From a phage: a DNA stretch of 64,000 nucleotides. Position 1 is the stretch's first letter; the number at the start of each line of letters is the position of its first letter. Below, piece by piece: positions 7,779 through 8,324 of this stretch. The notes below the pieces were generated by a model, which ran no database searches, was not told the origin of the DNA, and worked only from the letters and a program-made list of their open reading frames with translations. Both the position numbers and the translations under genes were made by a program. The stretch is taken from NCBI GenBank assembly GCA_025830695.1, contig GCA_025830695.1_4111.1. One strand, given 5' to 3'.

Positions 7779-8324
7779 ATGAAACATACTATCGAACAAC
7801 AAGTGTTTTCACTTCAACAGTTCAGCGTTGTGAAAGCCACATATAAAGATTCAGTTTATTACTTAGCAGGGAGTAATGATATTACTCCTTATGTAACAAA
7901 ACTACAATCTGAACATAGTAAAGTTGATAATAAAGTACTTAAAGCTGGACTAGAGTTATTTTTAAAAGAACACCCTGAAAAAAATCAGTTGGATGTTCCT
8001 AAGTTTCACTTTATTTTGTTAGATGATCCTACCACACATGCAGAGTATGTTGAGTGTGTTTGTAGTGAAGTATTCCACATGGACCAAGACCAAGCATGGG
8101 AGGTTATTGAAGCACTAAACTCTTCAGTACATTCATATCATGTTGGTACATTTACTGATGAAATGTGTATTACATTCGCTGCAATGATTGACAATGGTAA
8201 CGAACAACTGCGTCAAAATTTAAAATATGACAAAGTTCCATGCCAAGCAAATGGTAAAGACTATGATTCAGCACTAGAAGTTCTAGAAACACTGATTCGT
8301 AAAGATTACCCAGATGATATTTAA
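7779..8324 (+). CDS. ClpS-like adaptor domain protein
   Basis: C-terminal region [16 protein letters not shown]...AWEV...[11 protein letters not shown] resembles the ClpS core (VILLNDD.T..EFV...A...H..G...V.T.E). Confidence 0.5.

Follow-up and report, generated by a model that had tools for sequence, protein, structure and literature searches.

ClpS is the textbook bacterial reader of N-degrons, and its hand-off needs both a disordered N-terminal extension and a defined ClpA docking face. The DNA considered here is a 64-kb stretch (contig GCA_025830695.1_4111.1; 64,000 nucleotides, hereafter the window) of a Rak2-like jumbo phage of the genus Asteriusvirus, which carries on its plus strand, at 7779..8324, an open reading frame for a ClpS-like protein of 181 amino acids. 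The gene represents a natural, clade-wide variant of ClpS that has neither the disordered extension nor the defined docking face, that keeps its pocket under constraint, and that occurs alongside a virus-encoded ClpA and ClpP. The explanation we favor, with a probability of about one half, is that the protein serves a ClpA-like/ClpP protease of the phage itself, as its retuned adaptor or modulator.

In Escherichia coli ClpS (PDB 2W9R, 3O2O, 1MBX), the N-recognin adaptor of ClpAP, the N-degron's alpha-amino group is held by N34, D36 and H66, the equivalents of Caulobacter N47, D49 and H79 (PMC12493166). The E. coli specificity pocket as a whole comprises L32, V33, N34, D35, T38, M40, V43, M62, V65, H66 and L99 (PMC12493166), with Met40 acting as a gatekeeper that keeps out beta-branched residues. 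Docking involves ClpS E82 and K84, which form salt bridges with ClpA R86 and E23, respectively, and E79, which hydrogen-bonds ClpA E28 and T81 (PMC12493166). Delivery further requires that the disordered N-terminal extension pass into the channel of ClpA, and it is inhibited when this entry is blocked (PMC9663308).

Phage-encoded ClpS is among the jumbo-phage features described by Iyer et al. 2021 (PMC7824862), who treated phage ClpP, ClpS and ClpA separately and assigned ClpS to the host ClpAP. The paper on phage Atu_ph07 lists Clp genes and does not link them together, and a literature search for experiments on phage ClpS found none in the library covered. In GenBank the gene considered here goes by the names 'protease adapter protein ClpS' (121Q gene 48), 'ClpS domain-containing protein' and 'ATP-dependent protease'. 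Because these names and the account of Iyer et al. already have ClpS, the bare identification of the gene is not new. Between positions 7000 and 9000 the window matches Escherichia phages SHEFM2K, slurp01, G17, PBECO4 and others at 100% identity and 121Q at 99%. The reading frame begins with ATG, has exactly the coordinates given in an earlier note on this DNA, and is preceded by an AAGGA Shine-Dalgarno sequence 7 nucleotides upstream; its start lies 13 nucleotides past the stop of a full-length homolog of IF3.

The ClpS-like core, its pocket and its added modules

On its own, the phage sequence matches Pfam family PF02617 over residues 74-144 with 24.7 bits (E=2e-5; cut-off 23). A profile built from 15 family members and searched against the PDB finds E. 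coli ClpS chains (E=4e-8) and no other significant match, and a deep profile search recovers about 150 ordinary ClpS-sized proteins over the core, which is 24.7% identical to E. coli ClpS. The ClpS resemblance of the core is not due to chance, and the protein belongs to the ClpS domain superfamily. The earlier note had read a ClpS-family domain directly after IF3, to be checked by a profile search against the family; the Pfam and family-profile matches, and the short gap from the IF3 stop, bear it out. It had further assigned the C-terminal 100 or so residues to the ClpS core. A core is indeed present, but it covers about 81 residues (74-154), and the final 27 have no ClpS counterpart.

The segment ahead of the core, 75 residues in the earlier note and residues 1-73 here, likewise has no ClpS counterpart, yet it is no mere spacer. 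It forms a conserved domain with a mean column identity of 72% and is predicted to be folded (predicted local distance difference test score, pLDDT, 78.6), with strands at 6-12, 15-22 and 25-30 and helices at 36-45 and 51-64. The linker that follows ends with an invariant V73-P74; a proline before the core is also found in E. coli ClpS, at its P24-P25 junction. Only about five residues precede the first strand, so that the canonical extension of some 20-25 amino acids, which is disordered and little conserved, is absent. Where E. coli ClpS has that extension, the phage protein has a predicted-folded domain of about 70 amino acids, and it adds a conserved C-terminal helix (162-176) and an acidic tail. 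This C-terminal element is absent from the ClpS proteins of E. coli, PA5oct and Atu_ph07, and L169, E170, L172, I173, R174, D176, P178 and D180 are invariant within it. Its mean entropy, 1.73, is the lowest of the three segments, that of the N-terminal domain being 2.05 and that of the core 2.12.

Several other assignments were tried and rejected. The ClpS-like protein stands nearer to ClpS than to the C-terminal domain of ribosomal protein L7/L12, for which the structural score lies far below that for ClpS, sequence identity is 9-13%, and sequence profiles give no match. The N-terminal module is not a KTSC-like domain akin to that of the neighboring gene (hhalign probability 0.07%). A 904-residue protein that matched in 14 stretches proved to be a tandem-repeat artifact.

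Functional sites were read from an alignment of 33 family members with 103 canonical ClpS sequences. All three E. coli-type ligands of the alpha-amino group are substituted in the phage protein: N34 is replaced by D82 (Asp in 23 and Asn in 7 of the 33), D36 by P84 (Pro in 19 of the 33), and H66 by N114 (Asn in 21, His in 5, Asp in 4). The gatekeeper M40, a Met in 61 of the 103 canonical sequences, has become A88 (Ala in 19 family members, Phe in 7). Retained are D35, as D83, and T38, as T86, along with the hydrophobic lining made up of L80, L81, V91, I110, L113 and L148 (E. coli L32, V33, V43, M62, V65 and L99). Within the family, the mean entropy is 1.62 bits for pocket columns and 2.20 bits for the remaining core columns (permutation p=0.003). 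The check on pocket residues that the earlier note had called for thus has a mixed outcome, with the lining, D35 and T38 kept and the alpha-amino ligands and gatekeeper exchanged.

Part of this exchange is known from a ClpS that works. The phage D82/D83/P84 is the 'DDP' of the solved ClpS of Mycolicibacterium smegmatis (9AYN), the adaptor of ClpC1P1P2, which reads IVWDDPVNLM where E. coli ClpS reads ILVNDDYTPM. The mycobacterial protein binds N-degrons that begin with Leu, Phe, Tyr or Trp, its Asp forming a salt bridge with the amino terminus of the substrate, and its unfoldase-docking surface is likewise only partly conserved. Because of this match, two of the three apparently lost ligands (N34D and D36P) have a working precedent, leaving H66N and M40A as the differences peculiar to the phage family.

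The docking face is altered in a similarly selective way. E79 is retained as E128 in all 33 family members; E82 has given way to I131 across the family, and K84 to F133 (Phe in 18, Tyr in 7 and Leu in 4 of the 33). The altered alpha3 face, made up of E128, I131, T132 and F133, has a mean within-family entropy of 1.33 bits against 2.15 bits elsewhere in the core (p=0.013). Pocket and docking face are both under constraint, that is, retained and retuned and not decayed. Judged by its residues, the interface with host ClpA appears weakened. Leptospira interrogans ClpS1 has Asp for the pocket His and the aliphatic Val80 for K84, so replacement of both occurs in natural ClpS paralogs of bona fide Clp systems; unlike the phage protein, ClpS1 has the usual disordered N-terminal extension and lacks added domains.

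Shorter ClpS proteins from other jumbo phages help to place these changes. PA5oct gp224 and Atu_ph07 gp708 are plain ClpS proteins of 100 amino acids, and NVP2275O_046 of Vibrio phage 2.275.O has 118; none has the N-terminal domain. Their cores are 34-35% identical to E. coli ClpS and 16-25% identical to the window protein. In all three, position 82 is acidic (Glu or Asp) and position 84 is Lys; PA5oct retains N34, M40 and H66 as well. Since the short phage proteins retain these docking residues, loss of the docking salt bridges coincides with gain of the N-terminal domain in the Rak2-like clade. The Vibrio phage protein has no N-terminal extension at all, and its C-terminal end, a helix followed by an acidic tail, aligns with the tail of the Rak2 family, a sign that the C-terminal element came first and may stand in for the extension.

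A ClpA-like unfoldase and a ClpP in the same phages

A search with the N-domain of E. coli ClpA returned Clp_N-like matches in many Rak2-like phages. The matches come from ClpA-like genes of full length, among them GAP32_229 (764 amino acids) and Munch_261, with a Clp_N domain and two AAA modules. The ClpA-like gene lies outside the 64-kb window, but phages slurp01, SP27, CRJP21 and E9.1, which are 99.9-100% identical to the window over the 2-kb query, encode a ClpA-like protein of 762 amino acids. This Asteriusvirus protein is 61.6% identical to its GAP32 counterpart and aligns with E. coli ClpA (1KSF) from residue 17 to residue 741 with E=2.4e-180, ahead of ClpC or ClpB. The Clp_N domain is present, Walker motifs and both pore loops (KYR and GYVG) are retained, and SIGM stands at the ClpP-docking loop, where E. 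coli has SIGL.

On the ClpA side of the docking interface, position 23 is Thr in the ClpA-like proteins of Asteriusvirus, RaK2, GAP32 and the Vibrio phage, and Glu in those of Munch, MIJ3 and Atu_ph07, as in E. coli. The other contacts have changed little in the phage proteins, E28 being replaced conservatively by Asp and T81 by Ser or kept as Thr, with R86 mostly retained. Covariation of ClpS position 84 or 82 with ClpA position 23 or 86 over eight lineages is suggestive for the pair 84/23, and we do not use it as proof. These ClpA-side changes are compatible with a co-adapted phage interface, though too thin to prove one.

The phages also encode a true ClpP, gene 464 of 121Q, which is the single ClpP found in that genome by local tblastn. 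In the alignment it keeps the N-terminal motif IPYVVE as well as the motif positions of Ser, His and Asp. In the assembled 121Q genome, tblastn with E. coli queries found no L/F-transferase (Aat), ClpX or HslV; the E. coli ClpS query is itself too distant to give a tblastn match there. The capsid protease of 121Q is a separate gene of the T4 gp21 type. Two further annotated candidates were left out of the system, namely 121Q gene 473 (218420-219028, 'ClpP-like'), which gives a sub-threshold 16.7 bits with Pfam CLP_protease and matches nothing in the PDB, and gene 475 (219356-219952, 'HslV/ClpYQ-like'), which has no Pfam match.

The genes share much the same distribution. There are 72 phage records with the ClpS-like protein and 70 with a ClpP of at least 60% identity; genus counts in the ClpP summary equal those of the ClpS-like protein, bar Escherichia (34 against 33), and ClpA-like counts are similar. 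Independently of this clade, a ClpS-type gene turned up in each further jumbo-phage lineage found to have a ClpA-like one, namely Atu_ph07, Phosso, Vibrio phage 2.275.O and the Pseudomonas phages of the PA5oct type. The ClpS-like, ClpA-like and ClpP proteins could form a complete phage Clp protease.

Partner and function

For the partner of the ClpS-like protein, the roles of its two added modules and its substrates, we infer the following. The protein would be a divergent three-module adaptor, either a substrate selector or a modulator, of the phage's ClpA-like double-ring unfoldase and ClpP. Its core retains the ClpS fold along with a conserved hydrophobic pocket whose rim is acidic. This module is probably still able to bind a free N-terminal residue, its N-degron specificity being altered by the Ala that replaces the Met gatekeeper and the Asn that replaces His66. 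The canonical hand-off to ClpA would have been rebuilt, the disordered extension that is pulled on being gone and the two residues of the docking salt bridges now being hydrophobic. The predicted-folded N-terminal domain may bind cargo or a partner, and the C-terminal helix and peptide may serve as a tether to the unfoldase or as a pore-engaging substitute for the extension. Its gene is co-transcribed with IF3 from a consensus host-type promoter (see below), which makes early or middle infection the probable time of its action.

Several observations weigh against this reading. The single-sequence Pfam score is barely above the cut-off, and all eight NCBIfam ClpS equivalog models fail, with 12.6-19.3 bits against cut-offs of 107-159. 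Since these curated thresholds fail along with the disordered extension, the gatekeeper and two docking residues, the protein is no canonical ClpS equivalog. For H66N, we know of no tested precedent for N-degron binding. The suggestive covariation of 84 with 23 comes from very few independent events and has exceptions, Munch pairing Tyr with Glu and the Vibrio phage pairing Lys with Thr. Predicted inter-domain geometry is uncertain (predicted template modeling score 0.50), leaving the position of the added modules over the pocket or the docking face unreadable, and a protein whose extension is replaced by a predicted-folded N-terminal domain could just as well inhibit delivery as carry it out. 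The ClpS-like, ClpA-like and ClpP genes are scattered over the genome, with the ClpA-like gene about 82 kb from the ClpS-like one; unlike in E. coli, the ClpS-like gene is not adjacent to clpA, and there is no clpS-clpA operon. Co-occurrence inside a single collinear phage clade may reflect shared ancestry only, and the three proteins are linked here by sequence and distribution.

The earlier note had instead described the IF3 and ClpS-like genes as host-derived and suggested that the ClpS-like protein could redirect or block N-degron degradation by ClpAP. Host derivation is not supported: the low identity of the core to E. coli ClpS and the conservation of the gene across the whole phage clade mark it as an old phage gene. 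As for the host enzyme, the phage's own ClpA and ClpP, the loss of E82 and K84, and the missing hand-off extension make the phage ClpAP a likelier partner, and the suggestion is not supported in the form in which it was made. In a broader form, in which the protein either brings new targets to E. coli ClpAP or acts as a decoy or inhibitor of N-degron degradation, we think it unlikely while regarding it as the strongest competitor. Iyer et al. (PMC7824862) proposed this partner, the pocket is conserved, the residue that contacts ClpA E28 and T81 is the invariant one, and a consensus host-type promoter would suit host take-over. A ClpS with a folded N-terminus is, moreover, a plausible inhibitor, given that blocking entry of the extension inhibits ClpS-assisted degradation (PMC9663308). 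Set against this, both salt bridges to E. coli ClpA (E82-R86 and K84-E23) have been lost to hydrophobic residues, and the phage's own ClpA-like and ClpP genes have the same distribution as the ClpS-like gene. Every other ClpS-bearing phage lineage found likewise has its own ClpA, which would be needless if host ClpA were the target.

An explanation that dispenses with the Clp unfoldase altogether is more doubtful. The ClpS fold is also the fold of the L7/L12 C-terminal domain, and it might have been repurposed for a role in translation, perhaps joining the neighboring IF3 and KTSC proteins in binding some component of the ribosome or of initiation. The least probable of the explanations we considered is that ClpA, ClpP and ClpS are a general quality-control or assembly aid for a very large virion, with the ClpS-like protein as an ordinary N-degron adaptor whose decorations mean nothing. 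It can draw on the GroES-like, DnaJ-type and other chaperone-like genes that the phage also encodes, on the assembly role that Iyer et al. (PMC7824862) suggest for phage ClpA, and on the working precedent for a 'DDP' pocket. The decorations are not neutral, though, the N-terminal domain and the C-terminal tail having entropies at or below that of the core; the extension essential to canonical delivery is absent, and the docking residues are changed family-wide.

Adaptation to the phage's own ClpA-like/ClpP protease can also be put in a more ambitious form, which we regard as improbable, a shade more so than the translation role just described. Rak2-like phages would then possess a self-contained ClpA-ClpP with a re-engineered adaptor, the C-terminal peptide standing in for the extension and the N-terminal domain recruiting cargo, and the whole would be wired to the take-over of translation. 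The basis for that wiring would be co-transcription with IF3, the flanking KTSC gene, and the S21 or ClpX genes in the corresponding block of related phages. The system might, for example, remove host initiation or ribosome-associated factors early in infection.

If the simpler pairing with the phage ClpA-like protein and ClpP is true, some phages import a complete regulated-proteolysis machine instead of borrowing that of the host, and the clade offers a natural experiment in adaptor re-wiring. The altered gatekeeper and His position may yield a binder of N-terminal residues with a new specificity, which would be of interest for ClpS engineering in protein sequencing and proofreading. As regards annotation, the label 'ATP-dependent protease' is wrong for this gene, and 'ClpS' is over-simple.

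Transcription unit and gene neighborhood

The IF3 and ClpS-like genes form a bicistronic unit, since the pair is framed by a perfect sigma-70 promoter and an intrinsic terminator (Table 1), and the two-gene block of the earlier note is in this sense a single unit. A promoter in the same place scores 12/12 in the Salmonella phage Munch and 10/12 in GAP32 and RaK2. The stem of the terminator is kept almost base for base (ACTCCAAGG...CCTTGGAGT plus the T-run) in five lineages, Asteriusvirus, GAP32, XaC1, RaK2 and Munch, across which the ClpS-like proteins beside it are just 35-64% identical. Its 3' arm includes GGAG (8382-8385), the Shine-Dalgarno sequence of the KTSC gene that follows, so the hairpin could end transcription and at the same time mask the ribosome-binding site of KTSC.

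Table 1. Features of the ClpS-like locus and of the phage ClpA-like and ClpP genes
Feature	Position	Strand	Details
Sigma-70 promoter, TTGACA-17-TATAAT	7189..7217	+	12/12 consensus; 44 nucleotides upstream of IF3 ATG
IF3 homolog, 167 amino acids, first gene of bicistronic unit	7262..7765	+	Pfam IF3_N 58.9 bits, IF3_C 51.8 bits; NCBIfam TIGR00168 110 bits (cut-off 60); PHROG 9787
ClpS-like residues 1-73: orphan N-terminal domain and linker	7779..7997	+	
ClpS-like residues 74-154: ClpS-fold core, retuned pocket, altered alpha3 face	7998..8240	+	
ClpS-like residues 155-181 and stop: variable loop, conserved C-terminal helix 162-176, tail	8241..8324	+	Tail pattern LE.LIR.DYP.D[LI]
Intrinsic terminator: long hairpin, then T7 (U7)	8336..8392	+	RNA fold -20.9 kcal/mol, z = -6.1
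KTSC-domain protein, 181 amino acids, conserved downstream neighbor	8396..8941	+	Pfam PF13619 51.9 bits
ClpA-like unfoldase, outside window	121Q gene 581, 298257-300545; slurp01 SCA80456, 239131-241419		gp581, annotated 'ClpA-like'
True ClpP, outside window	121Q gene 464, 214364-215059		gp464; PF00574 141 bits; E=1e-36 to solved ClpPs

An 11/12 sigma-70-type promoter precedes each of the phage ClpA-like and ClpP genes, and no T4-late motif was found at either of them or at the ClpS-like unit. Over the whole 121Q genome there are 32 perfect 12/12 sigma-70 sites, all on the plus strand, and 89 sites at 11/12. This set points to very many early or middle promoters that depend on host RNA polymerase, with a strict strand bias.

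The order IF3, ClpS-like, KTSC is kept in GAP32, XaC1, RaK2 and Munch. Vibrio phage 2.275.O has IF3, S21, ClpS and KTSC in that order, and PA5oct carries an S21 gene some 1.5 kb away from ClpS. A ClpX-like gene adjoins IF3 in Atu_ph07, with ClpS about 4 kb off across the origin of the circular record. Because these phages are related and largely collinear, the recurrent linkage of Clp and translation genes is a lead towards a translation-proteolysis link and no demonstration of one. The spacer between IF3 and the ClpS-like gene is 12-15 nucleotides in Asteriusvirus, RaK2 and Munch, 66 nucleotides in GAP32 (3384-3449 of the stretch examined) and 46 nucleotides in XaC1 (3398-3443), where it holds a GC-rich hairpin followed by a T-run. 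The two genes may be partly uncoupled in some lineages.

The KTSC gene overlaps the next open reading frame (8913-10502, a 529-residue 'virion structural protein') by 29 nucleotides, and the C-terminal half of the KTSC protein, about 100 residues, has no Pfam match. Elsewhere in 121Q, gene 533 (255134-255466) encodes an HPF/RaiA-type ribosome-associated factor (Pfam Ribosomal_S30AE, 37 bits), which besides IF3 is another sign of translation manipulation by this phage group. A PADLOC search gave no match, and so no link to anti-defense or defense. The window also contains a cluster of six tRNA genes at 45550-51031 (Gly-tcc, Ser-tga, Ser-gct, Met-cat, Asn-gtt and Thr-tgt). The annotation of 121Q places a tRNA-Leu(taa), which ARAGORN does not call in the window, right after tRNA-Ser(tga), and spacing within the cluster differs between the window and 121Q by a few hundred bases.
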